Source: an uncultured Caldilineaceae bacterium (lineage in GTDB: Bacteria; Chloroflexota; Anaerolineae; 4572-78; J111). From it: 64,000 bases of DNA. The notes beneath the pieces are model-generated. The model ran no database searches. It was not told the DNA's origin and saw only the letters and a program-made list of their open reading frames with translations. Every line of letters starts with the position of its first letter. The first letter of the stretch is position 1. The position numbers and the translations under genes were made by a program. Below are positions 3,794 to 52,952 of this stretch, piece by piece. Location: contig CAZTFF010000018.1 of assembly GCA_964612485.1 (NCBI GenBank), positions 12,598 through 76,597 of the forward strand, given 5' to 3'.

Positions 3794-5389
3794 ATGGATG
3801 AACGCCAGCTCAATGAAATATTGCAAAACGGAATAAAAGCCGCCCGGCGCGGCCATAAGGAACCTGCGAGGAAACTGCTCTCGCAGGTTGTTCAGGTTGA
3901 CGCCAACAACGAGGAAGCCTGGTTGTGGCTCTCGCGGGTGGCAGATGATCCGCAGCAGCAGGCGCAGTGTTTGCAACAAGTGTTGCAGGTCAACCCCGAT
4001 AATCGATGGGCCGCCGGGCAACTGGCCGAATTGCAATCCCCACCCCCGGTTTCGGGGCAGGAGGCACCGCCGCCCCTGCCCGCCGAGCCGGCAGCACCGG
4101 CACAGCCCTCGGCAGATGAAAGTAGCAGCAAATACAAGCGCATTGAACCCAAATCATCCGAATTAAAACTGGAAACCCTCTCATGCCCCCACTGCGGCGG
4201 CACGGTTGATCTTAGAAGCGGGGCCGAGGCCAAAACCATGGTCTGCAATCACTGCGGCAGCGTACTTGATCTAACCAGCGAGCAGGCCGCCGTGATCGGC
4301 CAGATGAACAAGCGCGTTCGCCCGACGATGCCCATTAAACCGGGCATGACCGGCACCTTTGAAAGCGAAACTCACCAGGTAATCGGCTGGATCCGTTACG
4401 AAGGATGGGATGATGAGGAGCGATGGCGTTGGGATGAGTGGCTGCTGGTGTCGGCCGGCGGCAAATATCGCTGGTTGAGTTATGATGCTGAGACGGGCTT
4501 CATTCTCAACGAAAAAATCCAGCCCCAGGCTCCGTTTGACCCCTACCGCGCTTCCTCAATCCAGGTGCCGGGCGGAACGGCCCAGGTGACCGAGCGTTCG
4601 CCGGCCAAGGTGCTGGCCTTTGACGGCGAGTTAACCTGGCAGTGTAACGTTGGAGATCAGTTTCACTATTTTGATGCCCAACGCGGCAGCATTCCTTACA
4701 GCGTGGAGTACAGCAAAGATGAGATAGAGGTCTACCAGGGGCAGCCGCTGGCGGATGTTGAGGTCTGGCAGGCCTTTGGCCGCGAGGATTTGGTCAAAAA
4801 AGCCGGTGAAGTATCTACCTGGAACAGCGCTTACCGGGTGCTGGCCCTCTTTTGCTTGCTGTTGGTACTTTTGAGCTGCTCCGGCGCGCTATTTACCGCG
4901 TTCACCGGCCAACAGGTGGCCCAAGAAGAGTTCCAGATGAAGCAGGGGCTGGAAGTAAAAACCATGGGGCCGATCACCCTGCCCAAATCGGATGCCGTCT
5001 ACCGGATTTCTTTAGAGTCTGGCGGCTTGCCGGTAAATACCTGGGCGGTGGTGGATGTCTCGGCTCGTGATAGCGAGGGGAACGAAGCGTATCTTTTCTC
5101 CGGCGAGTTCTGGGACGAAGAGGGGCGGGACAGCGACGGTTACTGGCACGAAAACGACCTCAACGCCGATTATCTTTTCAAACTCGAAGAGGCCGGTGAT
5201 TATTACCTGAATGTTTCGATGGAAGATGCCACGGTCACATCAATGCCGCTGACCGTCACTGTCGAACGCGGCGTATGGCTGACGCGCTACTTTATCATTT
5301 TCCTGGTGATCGCCGCCGTGCTGGCTTTTGTATTTTTTAGCCTGAGTAACCGGCGGCTGGTCGGTAGCTCACTGTTGAAATCCCAATAA
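3794..5389 (+). CDS. TPR + zinc-ribbon + DUF4178 protein with a C-terminal TM-ectodomain-TM module (paralog 3)
   Basis: Track ORF 3677..5389. I prefer ATG 3794 because MDERQLNEILQNGIKAARRGHKEPARKLL aligns with the N-terminus of paralog 2 (MDDFNPQDALQKGIRAARRGHKEPAQALL). It contains CPHCGG..CNHCG and WRWDEWLL, plus two TM helices flanking a ~170-aa region. Confidence 0.8.
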   Translation: MDERQLNEILQNGIKAARRGHKEPARKLLSQVVQVDANNEEAWLWLSRVADDPQQQAQCLQQVLQVNPDNRWAAGQLAELQSPPPVSGQEAPPPLPAEPAAPAQPSADESSSKYKRIEPKSSELKLETLSCPHCGGTVDLRSGAEAKTMVCNHCGSVLDLTSEQAAVIGQMNKRVRPTMPIKPGMTGTFESETHQVIGWIRYEGWDDEERWRWDEWLLVSAGGKYRWLSYDAETGFILNEKIQPQAPFDPYRASSIQVPGGTAQVTERSPAKVLAFDGELTWQCNVGDQFHYFDAQRGSIPYSVEYSKDEIEVYQGQPLADVEVWQAFGREDLVKKAGEVSTWNSAYRVLALFCLLLVLLSCSGALFTAFTGQQVAQEEFQMKQGLEVKTMGPITLPKSDAVYRISLESGGLPVNTWAVVDVSARDSEGNEAYLFSGEFWDEEGRDSDGYWHENDLNADYLFKLEEAGDYYLNVSMEDATVTSMPLTVTVERGVWLTRYFIIFLVIAAVLAFVFFSLSNRRLVGSSLLKSQ

Positions 5390-5392
5390 TCA

Positions 5393-6907
5393 ATGCAACT
5401 TACAACCCGCCATTCTACCTCTCTTTTGGTTACCGTTTTTATCATTGCCATCTGCGGCCTGGTGTACGAGCTGATCATCGGCACCCTTTCCTCTTATTTA
5501 TTTGGCAATACCGTTACCCATTTTTCAATCACCATAGGTTTGTTTCTGAGCGCGATGGGCATCGGCTCGTTTGCCTCGCGGCGGATCAACGATTCGTTGT
5601 TGGGTTGGTTCATCGGCGTGGAACTATCGGTGGGGCTGGTGGGGGGATTCTCGGCGGCACTGCTGTACGCGGTGTTCGCCACCACCGATGTGTACCACGT
5701 AGCCATGGTGGTGCTGATCCTCATCATAGGCAGTTTGATCGGTATGGAAATCCCCCTGCTGACCCGTTTGCTGGGCGGGTGGGACAATATCAAAGATACG
5801 CTGGCCAACGTGCTGGCCTTTGATTATATTGGCGCGCTGATTGCCTCGGTGCTGTTTCCGCTGGTTTTACTGCCGGAACTGGGCCTGCTAAAAACCGCGT
5901 TTGCCACGGGCATTCTCAATGTTTTGGTGGTGGCGCTGAACATCTGGATCTTTCGGGACCGGCTGTCCCGCTGGCGTGGGCTTTCTCTCGCAACCGGCGG
6001 CATTGCCCTGCTGTTGCTGGGGGGCGCGGTCTGGTCTAACCTGTTGACCTCCGTGTTTGAGCAGCAACTCTACAAGGATGAGATCATCTACAGCCGCCAG
6101 ACGCCCTACCAGCGCATCATTATGACCCGTTGGGCCGACGATGTGCGCCTGTTTTTAGACGGCAACCTGCAATTCAGCTCGCGCGATGAATACCGTTATC
6201 ACGAACCGCTGGTGCATCCGGCCATGTCGCTTACCCGCTCCCGGGAGTCGGTGCTGGTGTTGGGCGGGGGCGATGGGCTGGTGGCCCGTGAGGTTTTTAA
6301 GTATGATGATGTGCAGCAGCTTGTGCTGGTTGACATCGACCCGGCCATGACCGAATTGGCCCTTACCCACCCGGCCTTGCTCGACATCAACGAGGATTCG
6401 CTCAGCGATCCGCGTGTGGAGATACTCAATCAGGATGCCTACACCTACCTGGCCGACACCGGCGAGCTGTTCGGCGTCATCATCATAGATTTGCCTGATC
6501 CCAACAACGAAAGTTTGGGCAAACTCTACAGCCGCGAATTCTACAAACTGGTACACCGCCACCTGGCCGGGGGCGGTGTCATTGTGACCCAGGCTACTTC
6601 ACCCTACTACGCCCGCGAAACGTACTGGTCCATTGCCCATACGATGGAATCGGTGGGGCTGCAAACTTGGCCGTATCATATGTATATTCCCTCCTTTGGC
6701 GATTGGGGCTTTATATTGGCCGCCGGCCACGAACTGGACCCGGCCAAGTTTTTACCCAGGGTTCCCATGCGCTATCTTGATGCCGATGTCTTTCAATCGA
6801 GCCTGGTTTTTGATGATGACATTGCCGAGATCGACACCGAAGTAAACACCCTGGATAACCAGATCATTCTGACCTATTACGAGCAAGCCTGGCGGCGGTG
6901 GCGGTGA
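5393..6907 (+). CDS. Polyamine aminopropyltransferase (spermidine-synthase fold) fused behind a polytopic membrane domain
   Basis: About 200 aa of TM helices come first. They are followed by YQRIIM...DGNLQFSSRDEYRYHEPLVHPAM, VLVLGGGDGLVAREV, IIIDLPDPNN and LYSREFY, which are spermidine/spermine synthase signatures. Confidence 0.85.
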   Translation: MQLTTRHSTSLLVTVFIIAICGLVYELIIGTLSSYLFGNTVTHFSITIGLFLSAMGIGSFASRRINDSLLGWFIGVELSVGLVGGFSAALLYAVFATTDVYHVAMVVLILIIGSLIGMEIPLLTRLLGGWDNIKDTLANVLAFDYIGALIASVLFPLVLLPELGLLKTAFATGILNVLVVALNIWIFRDRLSRWRGLSLATGGIALLLLGGAVWSNLLTSVFEQQLYKDEIIYSRQTPYQRIIMTRWADDVRLFLDGNLQFSSRDEYRYHEPLVHPAMSLTRSRESVLVLGGGDGLVAREVFKYDDVQQLVLVDIDPAMTELALTHPALLDINEDSLSDPRVEILNQDAYTYLADTGELFGVIIIDLPDPNNESLGKLYSREFYKLVHRHLAGGGVIVTQATSPYYARETYWSIAHTMESVGLQTWPYHMYIPSFGDWGFILAAGHELDPAKFLPRVPMRYLDADVFQSSLVFDDDIAEIDTEVNTLDNQIILTYYEQAWRRWR

Positions 6908-17735: not shown

Positions 17736-18512
17736 CTATTTGGGAATAATGGTGACTTTTCGATTATCGTTGCTGCCAACGCTTTTGGTATAAACTTTTG
17801 GATGATCGCGCAGAGCCAGGTGGACCAGGCGGCGCTCGTGGGCGGGCATCGCTTCCAGCACCACGCGGCGGTTGGTGGATACGGCCCGTTCGGCCATTTT
17901 CTGGGCCATTTTTTGCAGCGAGCGGCGGCGGCGTACCCGGTATGATTCCACATCAATAATCACCGGCTCCCAGCGGTTGAAATGCTTGCTGACCATCAGC
18001 CGGATCATATATTGCAGCACCTGGAGCGTTTCGCTGCGGCGGCCAATTAAAATGCCCAGGTCTTTGCCGCTGATATCCAAGATCAGCGGCGGTGTTTCTT
18101 CAGATTCTACCAGTTCGGGGGCGTCGGTTACATTCACCTCGGCGTTAATACCCATCCGTTCTAACAGGCCGGAAAGATATTCAACGGCCACATCTGCTAC
18201 GTTTTCCTCATCCCCCGCGCTGACATCGATTTCAGCAACGTGTTGTTCCGTTTCCGGTTCAACCGCCGGCGCCGGTGTAGTTGCTTCGGCCTGGGGGGTG
18301 GCCTGTTCCCTGGGCGTCAGGCGAACCGTTGCTTCTTCTGCACCAAGGCCAAAGACACCGCGTTTGCCTTCGCTGATGATGTCAATCTCTACCTGGTCCT
18401 GGTTTAGCCCTAATTGGGCCAATCCCAATTCTATGGCGTCTTCAATTGTTTTGGCTTGTACCTGGATACTGTTATCGTTTACGTCGTTTTTTCTTTCGTT
18501 TTGATCTGGCAT
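17736..18512 (-). CDS. jag: Jag/SpoIIIJ-associated RNA-binding protein (Jag_N + KH + R3H)
   Basis: N-terminal KTIEDAIELGLAQLGL (Jag_N), GKDLGILIGRRSETLQVLQY (KH GxxG), and C-terminal ERRLVHLALRD (R3H). The annotated start overlaps the yidC 3' end by 41 nt, so the start is uncertain. Confidence 0.88.
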   Translation of the reverse strand: MPDQNERKNDVNDNSIQVQAKTIEDAIELGLAQLGLNQDQVEIDIISEGKRGVFGLGAEEATVRLTPREQATPQAEATTPAPAVEPETEQHVAEIDVSAGDEENVADVAVEYLSGLLERMGINAEVNVTDAPELVESEETPPLILDISGKDLGILIGRRSETLQVLQYMIRLMVSKHFNRWEPVIIDVESYRVRRRRSLQKMAQKMAERAVSTNRRVVLEAMPAHERRLVHLALRDHPKVYTKSVGSNDNRKVTIIPK

Positions 18513-19869
18513 CTTGTCTTTTTCTACTTCCTCCTGAAGCTGAATCTGCCGACACGCCTGATTCTACCGCAACCGGTACAGGTTCATTATTTTTTCCGTC
18601 GGTTGCTGCCGCCGGCTCGGTTTGGATCTGGGTTTTGGTGAAATATTGCTGGCCCATTGCCAAAATATTACTGGTAAACCAGTAGAGTGTCAACCCCGAG
18701 GGCACAATCAAGGCAAAATACCCGAACATCAACGGCATAAATTTCATCACGGATTGCATCGAGGCCTGTTGCGGATCGGCGGTGGCCGGCGTCATCATTT
18801 TTTGCATATAAAGCTGGGATACAACCAGCAATACCGGCAGCACCAGGTAGGCAATGGCATCGGCCCAACCTACAGACGGCGGCAGGGGCCACAGCCAGCT
18901 AATGCCGCCGCCCCAATCGGATACAGGCCCGGACAGGCTGGGAATCCAGAAAAATCCTTCGTTGAGTAGCCCTTCGCGGGAGAGTTGGATCAGAGACCGA
19001 TAGAGCGCAATCCAGATAGGCATTTGCACCAGCATCGGCAAACAGCCGCCCAACGGATTGACCCCGTGTTCTTTGTACAGGGCCATCTGTTCCTGGGCCA
19101 ATTTTTCACGGTCGTCTTTGTATTTTTCCTGTATTTTTTTGAGCTGGGGCTGTAATTCCTGCATCGCCTTAGACGATTTGATCTGCTGCATATTGAGCGG
19201 GAAGGTCAGCAATCGAATGGTCACGGTGAAGAGAATAATGGCGAAACCAAAGGAATAAGGTATGCTGGCGGTGTTCAAAAAGCGGTCAATCCAGACCAGC
19301 GAGATGGCGATGAGGTTGACAAATTGATCCCACAGATTTAGATCAGGTTCCACCGTGGTGACGGTTACCCCGGCTTGCAGGCTGGTGCCGCCAAACTCTA
19401 AAGAGGCTATGTTGCTCAACGTTTTTCCCGGCTCCGAGGTGGTGGGTGGAATAGCGCCATAGTAAAGGAAGGCTTCTTCCCCCTGCGCCAGGCTGCCCGA
19501 CCAGCGGAAGGTATTCTCCTCAAGATCATATTCAGCTGTGCCAAGGGTGGCGGATATAATTTTTTGAAGAACCAACTCTTCTGGAAGAGGGTCGATAAGG
19601 GTGGCGTTGATGGTTTCAGCGCCATCGTTTTTTACGGTGATCGTGAAAGGAACCACCTGGCCCAGGGCGATATTTTCAGTACCGGCCTCTTTTTCCAGCG
19701 TAACGCCGGCTTCCTGGGCGGTAGGGCCAAGGTTTAAGGCTCGATTATCAGGCGTGGCTGCCGTAGCCGGTTGAAATGATAGAGCCAGGATGAACAAAAT
19801 GGCAGCCGCCACAGATGTGGCGATAACCACCAGGGCTACAGTTGATAATTTTGTAAGCTTGACACGCAA
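18472..19869 (-). CDS. yidC: Membrane protein insertase YidC with an N-terminal DUF11-like beta-sandwich insertion
   Basis: TTG start at 19869. The 60 kDa insertase core includes MQELQPQLKKIQEKYKDDREKLAQEQMALYKEHGVNPLGGCLPMLVQMPIWIALY and a basic tail RKRQDARSKRKKKRRKR. Residues ~60-170 (GQVVPFTITVKNDGAETINATLIDPLPEELV...) look like a DUF11 conserved-repeat domain. Confidence 0.92.
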   Translation of the reverse strand: MRVKLTKLSTVALVVIATSVAAAILFILALSFQPATAATPDNRALNLGPTAQEAGVTLEKEAGTENIALGQVVPFTITVKNDGAETINATLIDPLPEELVLQKIISATLGTAEYDLEENTFRWSGSLAQGEEAFLYYGAIPPTTSEPGKTLSNIASLEFGGTSLQAGVTVTTVEPDLNLWDQFVNLIAISLVWIDRFLNTASIPYSFGFAIILFTVTIRLLTFPLNMQQIKSSKAMQELQPQLKKIQEKYKDDREKLAQEQMALYKEHGVNPLGGCLPMLVQMPIWIALYRSLIQLSREGLLNEGFFWIPSLSGPVSDWGGGISWLWPLPPSVGWADAIAYLVLPVLLVVSQLYMQKMMTPATADPQQASMQSVMKFMPLMFGYFALIVPSGLTLYWFTSNILAMGQQYFTKTQIQTEPAAATDGKNNEPVPVAVESGVSADSASGGSRKRQDARSKRKKKRRKR

Positions 19870-20528: not shown

Positions 20529-20579
20529 TCACTCGTCAACAACTTTGGCCCGCTACCCTTTCGTTACTCAGTCCGCGTT

Positions 20580-20744
20580 CCAGTTGGTGCGTTTCGGATG
20601 GCGGCGCTGGGTGGCTAATGATTGACGGCCCCGCGCGCGGCGCGATTTGAGTACTTTTTTGCCTCCACGCGTAGCCATTCGGGCGCGAAAACCATGAACG
20701 CGTGATCGGCGTCGTCGTTTGGGTTGATAGGTCCTTTTCGGCAT
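20580..20744 (-). CDS. rpmH: 50S ribosomal protein L34
   Basis: Not in the ORF track because it is under 60 aa. My codon-by-codon translation gives [54 protein letters not shown] (54 aa), with stop TGA at 20580-20582. Confidence 0.92.
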
Positions 20745-20786
20745 GTTTCTTAAAAAACCTCGCTTCTAATATTTAATGGACAAGAG

Positions 20787-20816
20787 ATTATACCTTACAA
20801 CCCTGGTGATTGGCAA
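20787..20816 (-). promoter_or_regulatory. Sigma-70-type promoter for rpmH-rnpA-yidD-yidC-jag
   Basis: On the minus strand: TTGCCA (20816-20811), an 18-nt spacer, then TATAAT (20792-20787), about 40 nt upstream of the rpmH ATG. Confidence 0.55.
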
Positions 20817-20878
20817 AAAAGCCCCGGATAGATGCCGTTTCTGAGAGGGATGTTTATTATATTTTTGTTACAAAAAAC

Positions 20879-20987
20879 GTATCTTCTCAATATTTTGGGG
20901 GAACGAGGTCTGAGCCTGTCGAAGACCGTTGGTTTCGACAAGCTCAACCAGCTCAACCAACTCAGCCCCAGATTATTGAGGAGGTAC
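20879..20987 (+). mobile_element. MITE-like element, copy 1 (109 nt) with imperfect ~23-nt TIRs and a perfect 8-bp TSD
   Basis: CAAAAAAC at 20871-20878 is repeated at 20988-20995. The ends gtatcttctcaatattttggggg and gtacctcctcaataatctggggc (reverse complement) match at 18 of 23 positions. A near-identical copy sits inverted at 31938-32037. Confidence 0.75.
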
Positions 20988-20988
20988 C

Positions 20989-21018
20989 AAAAAACCCCCA
21001 ATTTTTGGGGTTTTTTTT
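20989..21018. terminator. Bidirectional intrinsic terminator (A6-stem-T8)
   Basis: aaaaaac then ccccaa ttt ttgggg then tttttttt. The stem pairs 20996-21001 with 21005-21010, flanked by an A tract and a T tract. Confidence 0.6.
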
Positions 21019-21044
21019 ATGGAAAAGTTTGCTATACTAAGAAG

Positions 21045-21140
21045 CATAAGAGTGATTTAGTTTTTAGTGTTTTAGTTTTATTTTTCCTCCTCCTCCTTTC
21101 ATTGCCCCCGGGTGCTGCCCCCACCCGGGGGACTTTTTTG
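21045..21140 (+). ncRNA. Candidate small RNA (~95 nt): orphan extended -10 promoter plus U-rich body with CCUCCUCCUCC plus strong intrinsic terminator
   Basis: TGCTATACT lies at 21030-21038. There is no plausible ORF. The tract cctcctcctcc is at 21086-21097. A perfect 10-bp stem pairs cccccgggtg (21105-21114) with cacccggggg (21122-21131), followed by acttttttgttt. The 5' end is inferred, not observed. Confidence 0.4.
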
Positions 21141-21141
21141 T

Positions 21142-24100
21142 TTAAAAGCCGGTTTCCGGCAGCAGCGTCGGCCAGTTGGCCGGTACAGGAGTCTCCGGCA
21201 CAATCAGATCATTTTGATACCGAGGCAGCATGCGGTATTCATCCCGCGATGTTATGCCATCCTCTGAATATTGGCTGACAATGCCTACCACGGTCACGGT
21301 CGTGCCGCGTTCGATGAAGGGTTTGCGAATGCCGGTCCGCTGCCGGATGTACACTTTGGCCGGGTCGGTGCCGTCATCCACCCACATCGTTGCCCGGCCT
21401 TTGAAATCGACCGCCTGCCCCTGGATCATCACCAGCATGCCTTCGTATGGTTCCAGGATGGAGGTTGTCGCCACCGGCAGCGGCGGCGGGGGCGAGCCGG
21501 ATTCTACACATTTCACATCGCTCCGTTCGTTTACTTTTATCTCCAACTCTTCGTGGTAATTTTTAAGATAACCTTCCACTTCCACGGTATCGCCCAGATT
21601 GCAGATTTTATGATCTTTGGGCAAGTAGATCAAAATTCCCGAAGTTTCATCTTGAATGTACATTGTCCGGCTGCCCAGCAAGCCCGGCGGCGCGGTAACC
21701 TGCCCTTCGACCCGCACCCACGCGTCCAGCGTCAACTGTTTCGCCTCAAAAATACTGACTTTGAGCGGGCCGGACGCTTCTTTTTTCCAATTTTTCCTGT
21801 TGGGGGAAGGGCCGCAATCTTCACTCCAGGAAGTTTGTCCATCCGGCAGCCGGCACCAGGTTTCATCATAACCGGGCGAGTGGGTGTAAGTAAAGGTGTC
21901 TACCACGGTTCCGTTGGGATGGATCAACGATACCGTATCGCCATCATTGTTCAGAGAGAAGCCGGTTTGGGCCTGGTAAAAGGTGATGAATCCGCGGGCG
22001 GGAATGATGGTATCGAGCGGAATGGTGTAGCTCAAGTTGGAATTGTCCGTTAAACGCCAGCCGCCGAGACCTACCGGTTGATCCAAAAGGTTGTACAGTT
22101 CCACCCATTCGTCGGTGTGATCCGGCATTCCGTTGCCGTCCCAATCCCAATCGTAGGGGGCGGGCAGAATCTCGTTGATGGTGATGGGATCAGGCGAAGC
22201 TTCACCCGTAATCCAAATGGGGGCGCTATAGGCGGTGTCGCCATCGGCCTGGATGGCTTTAACCCAGAAAAAGTGGCCGGGCCGGGCGGTCACGGTGGTT
22301 GACCATTGCCCCGGGTTTGTGTCAAAGGGTACGGTCGCCAGCGGTAAATTGCCGTCGTAGAGCCATACCGTCACCGCTTCGGAGTCGGCGTCCGTCACAT
22401 CGATTGTCAGCGTTATGCGGCCGGTGGTGGTTATCACGCTGCCCATCCAATGGTTGTTCAGGCGCAGGGCCAGGGCCAGGTTGCTGTCTTCTGTGGCAAA
22501 AACACGCCGGGCGCGCATGGCGTCCAGAAGATCGGGTTGGGTCAGCGCCGGAGCCACAATGCCGGTTCGTGTGGCCGAGTCGCTTCCCCAGTGAGCCGTA
22601 TGGATGTCGCTGTTGTTGGTGGGGGCTACAGCCCATCCCATCATATTGCTCTGAATAAAGGCCGATTCGTAGGTGAGGTAGTCCCTGGCGTTGTTCCCGA
22701 TTTCTTGTAGCGTGATGATAGGAAATGCTTGGCTGTTGAAGGGAAAACTCTCAAAATCCCCATCATAATTGATACCGGGGTGGTTAAGTTGGGCGATGGT
22801 GTCGGGCTGCGTGGCCAGCCAGTCGTACATCTTGGTAAGGGTATCGAATTGGGGATCTTCCCGGCTCAAGAGGGCAGCGTTGTTGAAGATATTGATGTGG
22901 CCCTCGGTGCGGTGCGTCCATTCCACCCCCCGCAGCGCGACAAATTGGCCGGCTTCGGTGGCCTGGTTGGTTTGGGTCAGGGTTTGATTCCATTCGTGTA
23001 GTGATAAACTATGCCCATGGTCGGTAATGGCAAAAAAGTGATGCCCGGCGGCGCGGGCCAGTGCCAGGGCGTAATAGGGCGGCCCGGCCCCGTCGGAGTA
23101 AGAGGTGTGGGCGTGAAGATCACCCCAGTAGGCGTGCATGCCGTCCGGCAAATCGGCGGGGGGTGGGGCAGTGACCGGGGCAGGGGATGGAGGAATGGTG
23201 GGAACGCCGGGGTTGGGCCCAGCCCGAACGAAATCATAGGGCATAGAATTTGTATCAACGGGCCAGATGCGTTGCAGGCTGTGAGGTTCCGGTGCGGAGG
23301 CATCCGGCTCCAGATTGAGAATCTCATAATCGCCGTTGCGGTAGGCCACGCTGTCTAAAATTTCGTCGTTGGGGCCTAAAACGATCAACTCGTCGCCGTT
23401 GTTGGAGAGCGCCCAATTGCCGCTGCTCCAGGTTGTATATTTGTTTAGGGTGGGAATGGCGGGATCGCTCTCGATGATTTCATAATCTGGCCACTCGTCA
23501 AATCGAGCAAAAAAGTCGCTGCCGCTCTTGGCAATCACCAGGCAGTCATCGGGGGCCAGGATGATGCCGCCGGGCAGGCTGTACATCCCTTCACCGCCGC
23601 CGTTTGTTTCCTCATCACCTATTTTGTAGCCGGCGAGATCAAGCGGGGCGGAATTTGGGTTGCAAATTTCGATATATTCGTCGCCTTCGGTAGACGAGGC
23701 CGTTCCATCGTAGACAAATTCACTGATGAGAAGCGGATCGGGTGATGGCGGCGGCGCGATGGTAGTAAAGGTGAAACTGTGGTTTGCGTTGAGAGGGTCG
23801 GGACTGCCATCCTGGTCCACAACGCCGGTGGCCGGGATTACGACCGTACACGTGGTTTGATAAGGCAGGTTCGCCGCCGGGGTGAGGGCAAACGCGGTGG
23901 CTGTGATTGTAGGGGTCATATTGAAGGGAACCGGCGCGCCGGCGGGGCATTCAATAGCAAGGGCGGCGGCGCTGACGCTGACCATTTCGCTGAATTGCAG
24001 CGTAATGGAGGTATTAACAGGCACATCAATGGCCGTATCGACCGGGTTGGTAGCGGTTACGGTGGGCGGATTGTCGGGCGGGAGGCAGGAGCCGAACGGC

Positions 24101-25665
24101 GTGCCATCAACGTGAGTGCCGGGCGAGAAAAGCAGGCCGCCCGAACCGGCGGCGGTACTGTGCCGGACAAACGTCGAGCCGGTGAGGTCCGGGTCGCGGG
24201 TGAGCGATTGGTTATCGCCTCCCTCGCTGCCGTAAGTGTGCGCGGCCCGGTTGGTTGTTCCATCATTTAGGGTCAGCGCATCACCGCCGTTATTCAACCC
24301 CAGAGTTCCGGCTGTTTGCACGATGGCATCGCCAAACGTGCCGGTGGGCGTACCGCCGCCAAAAACCACTATCGCGCATTGGTCCGGCATGATGGTGTTT
24401 GGCGGAAACGTATGGCGAGGGCCGGTGTTGTCGGCAAGCGTCCAGCCGGAAATATCAACCGGGCTGCCGGTGTTGTTGATGAGTTCCACAAATTCATCAT
24501 CGCCGGTATCAACCATGCCGTCACCGTTGGCATCGCCCGCAGTGCTGTCGGGGTCGGCGTGAATTTCATTGATGATCCAGCCGCTGGTGGTGGTGAAATC
24601 AAACGTGTAGTCGGCGGCCATAGGATTGCCGGTGGCGTCAGTAATCTGAGCGCCCCATATTGAAACTGTACAGCTTTCATTGTTGGCAAAGCGGGTATCG
24701 GGATTTAAGGTGTATTGCTGCGGCCCACCGCTGACCGTGGCCGAATGGGAGCCGCTGTTGGCGCAGGTAATATCAAACCATGGTTCGATGACATTGACCG
24801 CCTCATTGAACATGATTTGGATATTCGTTTCCGCGGCCACATCGGTATCGTCGGAATTTGGCGTTGTGCCGGTGACAGACGGGGGTGCATCGCCGATTTG
24901 GATATTGTCAAGCCCGTATTCATCCCGGCTGCCGCCCCCGCTGATATCGTCGCCCGTCCATTTGAGATAGAAAAAATCACCGTTGTTGATGTTCAGGCCG
25001 GTGAGAGCGGTGGCGCGGTGTGCGGTTTGCCAGGGCAGGCCATCGGCGGCTTCCGGCGTGGTGAAATCGAGCGAGGGCATGGTGGTGTACGTCACATTAT
25101 CCGGGGAAAAAGAGAAGTTTAAGGCGTTGGCTCGATCTTCGTTGTTGAGGTAGCGGATGTCATATTCAACCGCCAACTCGGTCAATAGGGAGCCGCTGTT
25201 GTTTTGCAGTTGCAGCGTGATCTCGCCGGGGGCAAAGTCTGCGCCGGTGGGCTGCACGCCCAAAATGATGTCTCCGCCGCCGGCATCGAAGGCGTATACG
25301 CCGCCGGTAGTGGCGTTGCCGCTTGATGTTCCTCTGGCAAAATCGTCCGCTTCCCGCGCATCGCCAAAATTCATAGCGCCGTCAGACAGGCCATTGACAA
25401 TCCAGATATCAGAGTCCAACTGCCCCGGATTGGGCGCAGGGTTAAATCCACTCCCCGTAAAGCTATCAAAATTTTCTGTAAAGGGGATGGGACCGCTGGC
25501 CAATATTTTTGGCGGCGATACAAAACAAAAAACAATAAGTAAAATAAAAATAGTTGGTAATTTTGGCCCACGAAAAAAACCGCTATTCCACGCAAGACTG
25601 CCTGAAACAGCGGTTTTTAAGGTGGACCGTTTGCGGCAAACGATCACGGTGTTATCCTCCCTCAA
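21142..25665 (-). CDS. Secreted 1507-aa multidomain protein: 3 lamin-tail domains, SbsA/Big_5 Ig-like domains, PHP-family metallophosphoesterase domain, C-terminal OB-like domain
   Basis: Signal/anchor LPTIFILLIVFCFVSPPKILA. The three LTDs read INEIHADPDS...DEFVELINNTGSPVDISGWTLADN, LISEFVYDG...DEYIEICNPNSAPLDLAGYKIGDE and INEILPAPYD...DEWVELYNLLDQPVGLGGWRLTDN. The PHP domain reads YWGDLHAHTSYSDG...FAITDHGH. Ig-like segments show the P..TP....DV.....I.I.F.E.V pattern. Confidence 0.85.
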   Translation of the reverse strand: MREDNTVIVCRKRSTLKTAVSGSLAWNSGFFRGPKLPTIFILLIVFCFVSPPKILASGPIPFTENFDSFTGSGFNPAPNPGQLDSDIWIVNGLSDGAMNFGDAREADDFARGTSSGNATTGGVYAFDAGGGDIILGVQPTGADFAPGEITLQLQNNSGSLLTELAVEYDIRYLNNEDRANALNFSFSPDNVTYTTMPSLDFTTPEAADGLPWQTAHRATALTGLNINNGDFFYLKWTGDDISGGGSRDEYGLDNIQIGDAPPSVTGTTPNSDDTDVAAETNIQIMFNEAVNVIEPWFDITCANSGSHSATVSGGPQQYTLNPDTRFANNESCTVSIWGAQITDATGNPMAADYTFDFTTTSGWIINEIHADPDSTAGDANGDGMVDTGDDEFVELINNTGSPVDISGWTLADNTGPRHTFPPNTIMPDQCAIVVFGGGTPTGTFGDAIVQTAGTLGLNNGGDALTLNDGTTNRAAHTYGSEGGDNQSLTRDPDLTGSTFVRHSTAAGSGGLLFSPGTHVDGTPFGSCLPPDNPPTVTATNPVDTAIDVPVNTSITLQFSEMVSVSAAALAIECPAGAPVPFNMTPTITATAFALTPAANLPYQTTCTVVIPATGVVDQDGSPDPLNANHSFTFTTIAPPPSPDPLLISEFVYDGTASSTEGDEYIEICNPNSAPLDLAGYKIGDEETNGGGEGMYSLPGGIILAPDDCLVIAKSGSDFFARFDEWPDYEIIESDPAIPTLNKYTTWSSGNWALSNNGDELIVLGPNDEILDSVAYRNGDYEILNLEPDASAPEPHSLQRIWPVDTNSMPYDFVRAGPNPGVPTIPPSPAPVTAPPPADLPDGMHAYWGDLHAHTSYSDGAGPPYYALALARAAGHHFFAITDHGHSLSLHEWNQTLTQTNQATEAGQFVALRGVEWTHRTEGHINIFNNAALLSREDPQFDTLTKMYDWLATQPDTIAQLNHPGINYDGDFESFPFNSQAFPIITLQEIGNNARDYLTYESAFIQSNMMGWAVAPTNNSDIHTAHWGSDSATRTGIVAPALTQPDLLDAMRARRVFATEDSNLALALRLNNHWMGSVITTTGRITLTIDVTDADSEAVTVWLYDGNLPLATVPFDTNPGQWSTTVTARPGHFFWVKAIQADGDTAYSAPIWITGEASPDPITINEILPAPYDWDWDGNGMPDHTDEWVELYNLLDQPVGLGGWRLTDNSNLSYTIPLDTIIPARGFITFYQAQTGFSLNNDGDTVSLIHPNGTVVDTFTYTHSPGYDETWCRLPDGQTSWSEDCGPSPNRKNWKKEASGPLKVSIFEAKQLTLDAWVRVEGQVTAPPGLLGSRTMYIQDETSGILIYLPKDHKICNLGDTVEVEGYLKNYHEELEIKVNERSDVKCVESGSPPPPLPVATTSILEPYEGMLVMIQGQAVDFKGRATMWVDDGTDPAKVYIRQRTGIRKPFIERGTTVTVVGIVSQYSEDGITSRDEYRMLPRYQNDLIVPETPVPANWPTLLPETGF

Positions 25666-52804: not shown

Positions 52805-52952
52805 TTGTCCATTCGGTAGGAGTGTGCTATACTGCAATCCCGGTGCGAACTTACAGAGGATGAATGATGGCTCATTTTCGCCTGGATAAAACTATAACAT
52901 ATCGTCAACCCAACAATCACTGACCCGATTCTCCGGAATCGGGTATTTTTTT
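52805..52952 (+). promoter_or_regulatory. Candidate pyr leader/attenuator: promoter + 19-codon leader ORF + intrinsic terminator
   Basis: TTGTCC (52805-52810), a 17-nt spacer with TG, and TATACT (52828-52833). SD AGAGGA is at 52855-52860. The leader ORF ATGATG... runs 52864-52923 (MMAHFRLDKTITYRQPNNH). A 9-bp hairpin pairs acccgattc with gaatcgggt (52923-52944), followed by T7 (52946-52952). Confidence 0.5.

Follow-up and report, generated by a model that had tools for sequence, protein, structure and literature searches.

A probable multi-copy family of small RNA genes carrying a copy of the 16S ribosomal RNA tail in uncultured Anaerolineae

We analysed a stretch of 64,000 nucleotides (nt), referred to here as the window, from the genome of an uncultured Caldilineaceae bacterium (Chloroflexota, Anaerolineae; GenBank assembly GCA_964612485.1, contig CAZTFF010000018.1, positions 12,598 to 76,597), and describe a candidate gene for a small RNA (sRNA) of ~95 nt on its plus strand. 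The genome (G000) comprises 6.17 Mb in 161 contigs and is 96.8% complete, and the window lies on contig C18. The interval of interest is bounded by two genes of the minus strand, rpmH (20568-20744) and a gene for a protein of 1507 amino acids (aa), which converges on the candidate and whose stop codon (21142-21144) coincides in part with the end of the U tract that would terminate the RNA (Table 1). A reading made from the letters of the window alone (the sequence-only reading) had described the interval as a promoter-to-terminator unit, and its elements were located again with one small correction. Direct reading and a pattern scan found the extended -10 box at 21030-21038 and its second copy at 52825, which is the only other copy in the window, where 0.07 copies would be expected by chance. 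Sequence inspection revealed no recognisable -35 element upstream of the box. The repeated UUUAGU words that had been noticed in the U-rich body were read as TTTAGT at 21056-21061, 21063-21068 and 21071-21076. The CCTCC tract began at 21086, as had been given, but ended one base earlier than described, at 21096 and not at 21097. The GC-rich hairpin at 21105-21131 was also seen in the sequence. Nine of its 10 base pairs are G-C, its loop is the 7-nt CTGCCCC, and it is followed by ACTTTTTTGTTT on the plus strand, to which the U tract is confined as claimed; on its minus-strand side the hairpin continues into CAATGAAAGGAGG, with no U tract.

The absence of a credible plus-strand open reading frame (ORF) from the interval, also part of the sequence-only reading, agreed with the list of ORFs and with a comparison to two congeneric genomes, G001 and G002. 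Neither the list nor direct reading showed a credible ORF on the plus or the minus strand across the unit. An ORF of 148 aa on the plus strand (20832-21278) was rejected, since it crosses a repeat that resembles a miniature inverted-repeat transposable element (MITE) and has no counterpart of at least 90 aa at the same locus in G002 or G001.

The CCTCCTCC tract is in itself statistically ordinary, with 1.5 occurrences expected per window, and it is conservation across genomes that lifts the unit above chance. Both congeners, G001 and G002, carry the unit at the corresponding locus, as does a metagenome contig, L045, and these three sequences were aligned with the window. In this four-way alignment, positions 21046-21131 were 98-99% identical, as compared to only 67-68% for the adjacent coding DNA; the ~60 nt that lie 5' of the hairpin were 99% conserved, against 67% for coding DNA. 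The -10 box (78-89% identical) and a palindrome that precedes it (85%) were also retained, and the spacer between the two was 29-57% identical and constant in length. Conservation set in 7-8 nt past the -10 box and ended at the terminator, and an onset at this distance from the -10 hexamer matches the expected start of a transcript. Differences in length among the orthologs were confined to the U-rich segment with the UUUAGU words, and occurred in steps of 5-6 nt. In L045 the two substitutions amounted to one compensatory pair in the stem, GGGUG/CACCC being replaced by GGUUG/CAACC.

Covariation of the stem was evident in a larger set as well. Across 14 distinct sequences, in an alignment that was fitted to a covariance model, 98.6% of cells were paired and double-sided changes were found in 5 of the 10 pairs. 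None of 500 shuffles equalled the observed values, and controls in which the stem was slid were far lower. The proposal of an independent promoter-to-terminator unit on the plus strand is thus supported by its conservation in relatives and paralogs, where the -10 box, the body of the RNA, the CCUCC tract and the terminator are all kept, and the compensatory changes that were to be looked for in the hairpin are there. In the predicted minimum-free-energy and centroid folds of all three copies in the genome (described below), the CCUCC tract was unpaired. The U-rich 5' segment of the window unit is predicted to fold into a weak hairpin at most. Comparative evidence therefore places here what is generally expected of an sRNA gene: a promoter of its own on the strand of the terminator, conservation limited to the transcribed body in a region without an ORF, and a Rho-independent terminator with a covarying stem. 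Judged from these features, 21046-21141 very probably constitutes a genuine gene in its own right, with a non-coding RNA of ~95 nt as its product.

Table 1. Features of the candidate sRNA unit and its surroundings, in coordinates of the window.
Feature	Position	Strand	Basis or remark
MITE-like interspersed repeat	20879-20987		Inserted at the left A-tract of the promoter palindrome
Promoter-linked palindrome, AAAAACCCCCAATTTTTGGGGTTTTT	20990-21015		Core CCCCAA-N3-TTGGGG, 20996-21010
Extended -10 promoter box, TGCTATACT	21030-21038	+	Read from sequence
Predicted sRNA (type A), ~95 nt, from A21046 to the U tract	21046-21141	+	Start placed solely by the -10 box and the edge of the conserved stretch
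U-rich 5' segment with three UUUAGU words	21056-21085	+	
Anti-Shine-Dalgarno tract, CCUCCUCCUCCUUUC	21086-21100	+	Contains the match to the 16S tail, 21092-21100
CCTCC tract, CCTCCTCCTCC	21086-21096	+	Pattern scan
Terminator hairpin, CCCCCGGGUG, loop CUGCCCC, CACCCGGGGG	21105-21131	+	
U tract, ACUUUUUUGUUU, predicted 3' end of the RNA	21132-21143	+	Overlaps the stop codon of the convergent gene
Convergent 1507-aa gene: three lamin-tail domains, Big_5, PHP, OB-like	21142-25665	-	Pfam scan

The unit is not unique to this locus. BLAST and a covariance model, R1, detected three copies in the genome, namely the window unit and sequences at C4:203884-203952 and C6:133875-133941. They also found paralogs in the congeners and further copies outside the genus but within the GTDB family. 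A second model, R2, found members in 14 of the 31 genomes of this Anaerolineae family, spread over 6 of its 14 genera, and pattern scans of metagenomes and genomes added L042, L044 (with two tandem copies) and L045. Model R1 detected no member among 25 genomes from the other three families of the order. No member was found with model R2 among 150 genomes sampled across the class, a search of limited sensitivity in which 33 candidates per genome were scored. Since these genome searches score part of the first-look candidates, 'not found' differs from 'absent', and the E-values of covariance models calibrated on short sequences are rough. Two matches of the pattern scans, L039 and L043, were set aside as chance occurrences (the reverse side of a ribosome binding site and a GC-rich region). 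A further locus, L041 from a genome of Thermodesulfobacteriota, was rejected as a member of the family and is a loose look-alike. At 5355-5406 it has a long stretch rich in C and U (CCUUCCCUCCCCUCCUUUUCCUCCCCC), which immediately precedes a GC hairpin with a U tract, and it may be a convergent instance of the same sRNA design.

The copies share an anatomy of palindrome, extended -10 box, variable 5' part, pyrimidine tract, short linker and GC hairpin, followed in most of them by a U tract. Each copy comes with a promoter of its own, oriented like its U tract, and 37 to 89 nt separate the -10 box from the hairpin; a same-strand promoter at a variable distance fits a transcript and not a DNA site. 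Amid variable flanks, CCUCCUU or a C/U-rich sequence close to it persists in nearly all copies, and the UUUAGU words recur in the orthologs of the window unit (type A) and in the paralogs of type C. The loop of the hairpin is conserved towards its 3' side, where CCCC is kept in nearly all copies of types A-C and in type D copies of genus g9 (variants include CUGCCCC, UUGCCCC, CUCCCCC, ACUCCCC and similar loops). A T-run follows the hairpin on the sRNA strand in most copies, and is interrupted or weak in some (for example in G041, G042 and G018). The paralog types are flanked by different genes from one genome to the next, so that the unit is autonomous. The multi-copy family, the link of the palindrome to the promoter and the conserved C-rich terminator loop had been overlooked in the sequence-only reading, and the window unit is very probably the founding example of a new, lineage-restricted, multi-copy family of sRNAs.

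These observations also bear on an alternative in which there is no separate RNA gene: the hairpin would terminate the convergent gene or stabilise its 3' end, and the -10-like box and the CCUCC tract would be incidental. The hairpin does stand directly past the stop codon of the 1507-aa gene, and a promoter scan called no promoter on the plus strand. However, a terminator of that gene would not be expected to have its U tract on the plus strand only, nor does it account for the conservation of the 60 nt before the hairpin or for the fact that the module, -10 box included, turns up again at loci unrelated to this one and beyond the genus. We regard this explanation as very unlikely.

A further subtype, type D, was seen in genera g2, g9, g10 and g13 and differs in having a canonical TTGACA-17-TATATT promoter and two C/U tracts. 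It occurs as single copies in genera g2, g10 and g13, and as tandem pairs in genus g9: L062 (G041:C1:1127396-1127637), L063 (G042:C397:3737-3985) and L033 (G043:C305:126-382). Each gene of these pairs has a perfect TTGACA-17-TATAtT/TATAAC promoter, and the first gene carries a highly conserved 5' part, UUCACAAGGCAUUUCUCUCCUUUCUUGUUGUUUGCCUCCCUCCUU. A pattern search of the window's genome found no type D copy.

The promoter architecture is as regular as the body of the RNA. Of 16 copies examined, 14 have the extended -10 motif TGnTAnnnT, and the other two, both of G043, have a canonical TTGACA-17-TATAtT promoter instead. A palindrome of the form CCCCAA-N3/4-TTGGGG, with an A-run upstream and a centre of 3-4 A/T, was found in 11 of 15 copies, and it always lies 19-20 nt before the TGn of the -10 box, despite diverged spacers. 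Its centre is ~42.5-43.5 nt upstream of the predicted start, which is the position of class II activator sites. Promoters with the palindrome have no -35 element, whereas the g9 copies without the palindrome have a perfect TTGACA. At L044 (9560-9640, minus strand of the locus), four palindromes or half-degenerate forms of it stand in tandem, ~23 nt apart, upstream of one sRNA gene, and a second sRNA gene with a palindrome of its own lies ~145 nt downstream of the first. Constant spacing across diverged spacers and this fourfold array together indicate that the palindrome is a site linked to the promoter, and it is probably bound by a transcription factor.

The core at 20996-21010 had earlier been taken for a bidirectional terminator. 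A terminator scan did score it as a weak one, and the conserved A-run upstream of the palindrome amounts to a U tract in the antisense direction. A role as a terminator alone is disfavoured, however, by the fixed distance to the -10 box and by the tandem array of L044, which mark the palindrome as linked to the promoter. It would possibly combine the two roles, as a factor site that doubles as an antisense terminator, and in the latter capacity it may stop read-through from the convergent gene.

About eight comparable palindromes are present in the 6.17-Mb genome, and two of them precede sRNA copies. Further palindromes of the type CCCC(A/T)nGGGG were found at G000:C77:9496-9511, C121:6791-6805 and C41:11342-11356, with a -10-like box 21-23 nt on; the genes that follow these three encode, as read by eye, an amidohydrolase-like protein with a Tat signal, a thioredoxin-like membrane protein and a transposase-like protein. 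These genes show no common theme, and no regulon is claimed. The three additional palindromes may represent a small regulon shared with the sRNAs, or may be a coincidence. At the type C copy, the palindrome lies between the sRNA gene and a divergent gene for a protein of 700 aa (G000:C6:134065 onward, plus strand), and the arrangement in G002 is the same. The N-terminal motif of the protein, MKHQQIHGACPHDCPDTCG, read by eye, suggests a gene of the molybdopterin oxidoreductase type.

The antisense face of the palindrome is relevant to a reading of the RNA as a cis-antisense regulator that would pair with the 3' end of the convergent messenger RNA (mRNA). This mRNA, here that of the 1507-aa gene, would read through the hairpin as far as the palindrome and be fully complementary to the sRNA. 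Seen from the minus strand, the palindrome is followed by a U tract (GGGGGUUUUUU) and the hairpin, 120 nt before it, is not; the A-run that encodes this U tract is conserved. The geometry is also recurrent, the convergent stop codon lying within 0-22 nt of the terminator in most copies and abutting it in G001, G002 and G011 as it does here. Yet the genes beside type B and type C copies change from genome to genome, the copy on C4 of G000 has no convergent gene at all, and a conserved single-stranded tract and a C-rich loop would serve no purpose in a perfect duplex. Regulation of the convergent gene in cis is therefore quite unlikely in our judgement.

We next consider the tract itself, which is complementary to Shine-Dalgarno (SD) sequences. 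The genome has no assembled 16S 3' end, and 16S genes of other members of the family were used in its place; those of G017, G024 and G041 end in GGAUCACCUCCUUUCUA. Positions 21092-21100 of the window (CCUCCUUUC) are an exact copy, in nine of nine nt, of this 16S ribosomal RNA (rRNA) 3' tail, and are preceded by two more overlapping CCUCC registers. The 9-mer is identical to that of 16S rRNA, but is placed here in a free RNA of ~95 nt with its own promoter and terminator. SD-like motifs were found at 23% of the first starts of long ORFs as compared to 4.7% of internal starts, and a perfect GGAGG, flanked by A/T-rich sequence, stands at -17 to -4 before at least 624 long ORFs. The GGAGG-type ribosome binding sites of the window to which the sequence-only reading had pointed (1451, 8844 and 54059) are real. 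The candidate thus presents an accessible motif complementary to the SD sequence of the organism, in that the tract stays unpaired in the predicted folds, matches the 16S tail exactly and has its GGAGG complement in use.

Two type C orthologs, L035 (G002:C209) and L036 (G001:C136), contain an internal AGGAGG ~10-20 nt after the predicted start that is predicted to pair with the CCUCC tract, and this pairing suggests that the tract is a competent surface for binding GGAGG. By way of this segment the type C RNA may, according to the modelled fold, mask itself; the type C copy on C6 of G000 has no internal AGGAGG.

Read on the opposite strand, the tract becomes GGAGGAGGAGG, which could act as a strong ribosome binding site serving a leader or a very short ORF, and the minus strand would then be the functional one. 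The three type C copies do each have an ORF of eight codons, identified by eye, 4-9 nt past the opposite-strand GGAGGAGAG. This mini-ORF was rejected because it is restricted to type C, types A and B having no start codon within reach of the GGAGG, and because the three peptides are mutually unrelated. Promoter and U tract are, moreover, conserved on the plus strand, and a function of the minus strand seems extremely improbable.

The candidate was compared with known sRNA families of similar design. Neither the window nor seven related loci gave any Rfam match at the gathering score, and a search of 20600-21300 at E <= 10 returned nothing meaningful for the unit, the best weak match being to ar14. 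This family belongs with the cuckoo RNAs of alphaproteobacteria (alpha-r14/RSs0680/CcsR1-4/NfeR1; Rfam ar14 and its kin), which share a conserved motif, CCUCCUCCC, that resembles the anti-SD sequence (PMC4615179). Like the family described here, cuckoo RNAs have several copies per genome, often in tandem, and they are thought or have been shown to occlude ribosome binding sites (PMC4615179, PMC10746234). They consist of two to four adjacent hairpins with CCUCCUCCC in each loop, and one of them, RSs0680a, is bound by Hfq (PMC4615179). Our candidate has instead a single terminator hairpin with the loop CUGCCCC, the motif lies in an unpaired 5' linker, no Hfq was found, and the host belongs to the Chloroflexota. 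The ar14 model scored 16.2 bits (E = 1.3) as compared to a gathering score of 58.8, and the candidate is thus not a cuckoo RNA by either the defining arrangement of motif and hairpins or the model score.

A second comparison is with RoxS/RsaE of Firmicutes, which acts independently of Hfq and in which C-rich regions, some of them in loops, pair with the G-rich SD sequence and block translation (PMC5419742, PMC6158497, PMC8216469). The likeness extends to a stand-alone gene with a Rho-independent terminator and to the C-rich design for SD pairing (PMC5419742, PMC6158497, PMC8216469). RoxS has CCCC/UCCC motifs in several loops, whereas a copy of the 16S tail is present here. No RoxS/RsaE match was found in Rfam at E <= 10, and the resemblance is limited to the CCCC of the loop and the CCUCC tract. 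The regulators of RoxS, ResD and Rex, have operators unrelated to the palindrome. In Actinobacteria, the 6C sRNA binds several mRNAs through C-rich loops without a chaperone; it has two hairpins with loops of at least six C and no CCUCC linker. There was no Rfam match to 6C on the unit.

A search of the 96.8%-complete genome detected no Hfq gene, which fits the class of chaperone-independent C-rich sRNAs known from Firmicutes and Actinobacteria (PMC5419742, PMC6158497). Taken together, a tract predicted to be single-stranded, a terminator with a C-rich loop and the lack of a detected Hfq match what is seen in RoxS/RsaE and cuckoo RNAs, and we favour translational repression for this reason. 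Transcription would begin at the extended -10 promoter (21030-21038), with the upstream palindrome, centred near -42.5, probably bound by a transcription factor, and would end at the Rho-independent terminator (21105-21143). The pyrimidine tract would be exposed in single-stranded form as a copy of the anti-SD tail of 16S rRNA, and would pair with GGAGG-type ribosome binding sites of mRNAs, thereby blocking the binding of 30S subunits without Hfq. The terminator loop, CUGCCCC, is a possible second seed for G-rich sequences, and the differing flanks of the three paralogs may confer a preference for particular targets. To this reading in full, that of a stand-alone sRNA gene with a palindrome-coupled promoter whose product is an Hfq-independent, anti-SD translational repressor, we assign a probability of about 0.6. 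As regards function, the design of the RNA makes Hfq-independent anti-SD repression the most likely one.

Several points weigh against this interpretation. A tract that can bind every GGAGG offers no obvious specificity, and a screen for targets did not provide one. With RNAduplex, the three paralogs were matched to 8877 start regions bearing an SD sequence. The best energies (-39, -33.4 and -32.9 kcal/mol) were not better than those of 18 type A controls with shuffled flanks, the minima of which ranged from -32.5 to -41.6. The top hits were an LPXTG surface protein, comEA and an ABC substrate-binding protein; the complementarity of their matches to the flanks was not kept in the orthologous start regions of G001 and G002, and none is put forward as a target. 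The plus-strand promoter was not called by a consensus scan, because it has no -35 element. In most copies, moreover, the terminator lies directly against the stop codon of a convergent gene, so that conservation of the hairpin could partly serve that neighbour.

The lack of a specific conserved target in the RNAduplex screen is what would be expected if the RNA were a decoy of the 16S 3' tail, which titrates a factor that recognises the anti-SD sequence or competes globally for strong SD sites. Candidates for such a factor are a nuclease of 16S 3'-end processing or decay, a MazF-type toxin that cuts the anti-SD sequence, S1 or bS21. The exact 9-nt match (CCUCCUUUC) is longer than the CCUCC core that SD pairing requires, the CCUCCUU element is kept amid variable flanks, and several copies, some in tandem pairs, are present per genome, all of which would suit a decoy. 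MazF toxins that remove the anti-SD sequence of 16S rRNA do exist (PMC12274833). On the other hand, inspection of the neighbourhoods linked no candidate protein partner to any copy. The UUUC by which the match is extended also pairs with long SD sites of the GAAAGGAGG type, and so fits a repressor equally well, and the paralog types have different conserved flanks, which suggests specialisation for targets. A decoy is, on balance, unlikely. Less likely again is the particular form in which the RNAs are regulated free copies of the 16S tail, switched by the palindrome and not specific for targets, that shield the ribosomal tail from a nuclease or toxin or retune translation away from strong-SD mRNAs. 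If this were true, palindrome-switched copies of the 16S tail would amount to control of SD-dependent initiation at the level of RNA in a phylum without Hfq. We retain anti-SD repression as the preferred interpretation of the family.

Other features of the surroundings do not belong to the sRNA unit. The MITE-like repeat that is inserted next to the palindrome occurs genome-wide in at least 40 scored copies (among 215 first-look candidates) of 83-89% identity, in both orientations, and is missing from the corresponding locus in G001 and G002. A match to the Rfam family Phe_leader at 20864-21020 (38.9 bits) was rejected, as it is below the gathering score of 55 and falls on the MITE-like repeat and the palindrome. 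In the YidC gene of the window (18472-19869, minus strand), a DUF11/DUF7927-like domain precedes the 60KD_IMP insertase core.

An anti-SD, C-rich design of sRNAs is in itself already well known from Proteobacteria, Firmicutes and Actinobacteria, and a search of the accessible paper collection found no small RNA described for Anaerolineae. If expressed, the family would be the first of riboregulators for this large and mostly uncultured lineage, which apparently has no Hfq. The evidence is unusually clean, with a sharp footprint of conservation, a covarying stem, paralogs and tandem copies, and the covariance model obtained here can be used to annotate the family in metagenomes. The palindrome, at its fixed distance from the promoter, offers a handle on the signal that would control these RNAs, and the exact copy of the 16S tail would make them a simple system in which to learn how cells use a free anti-SD RNA.

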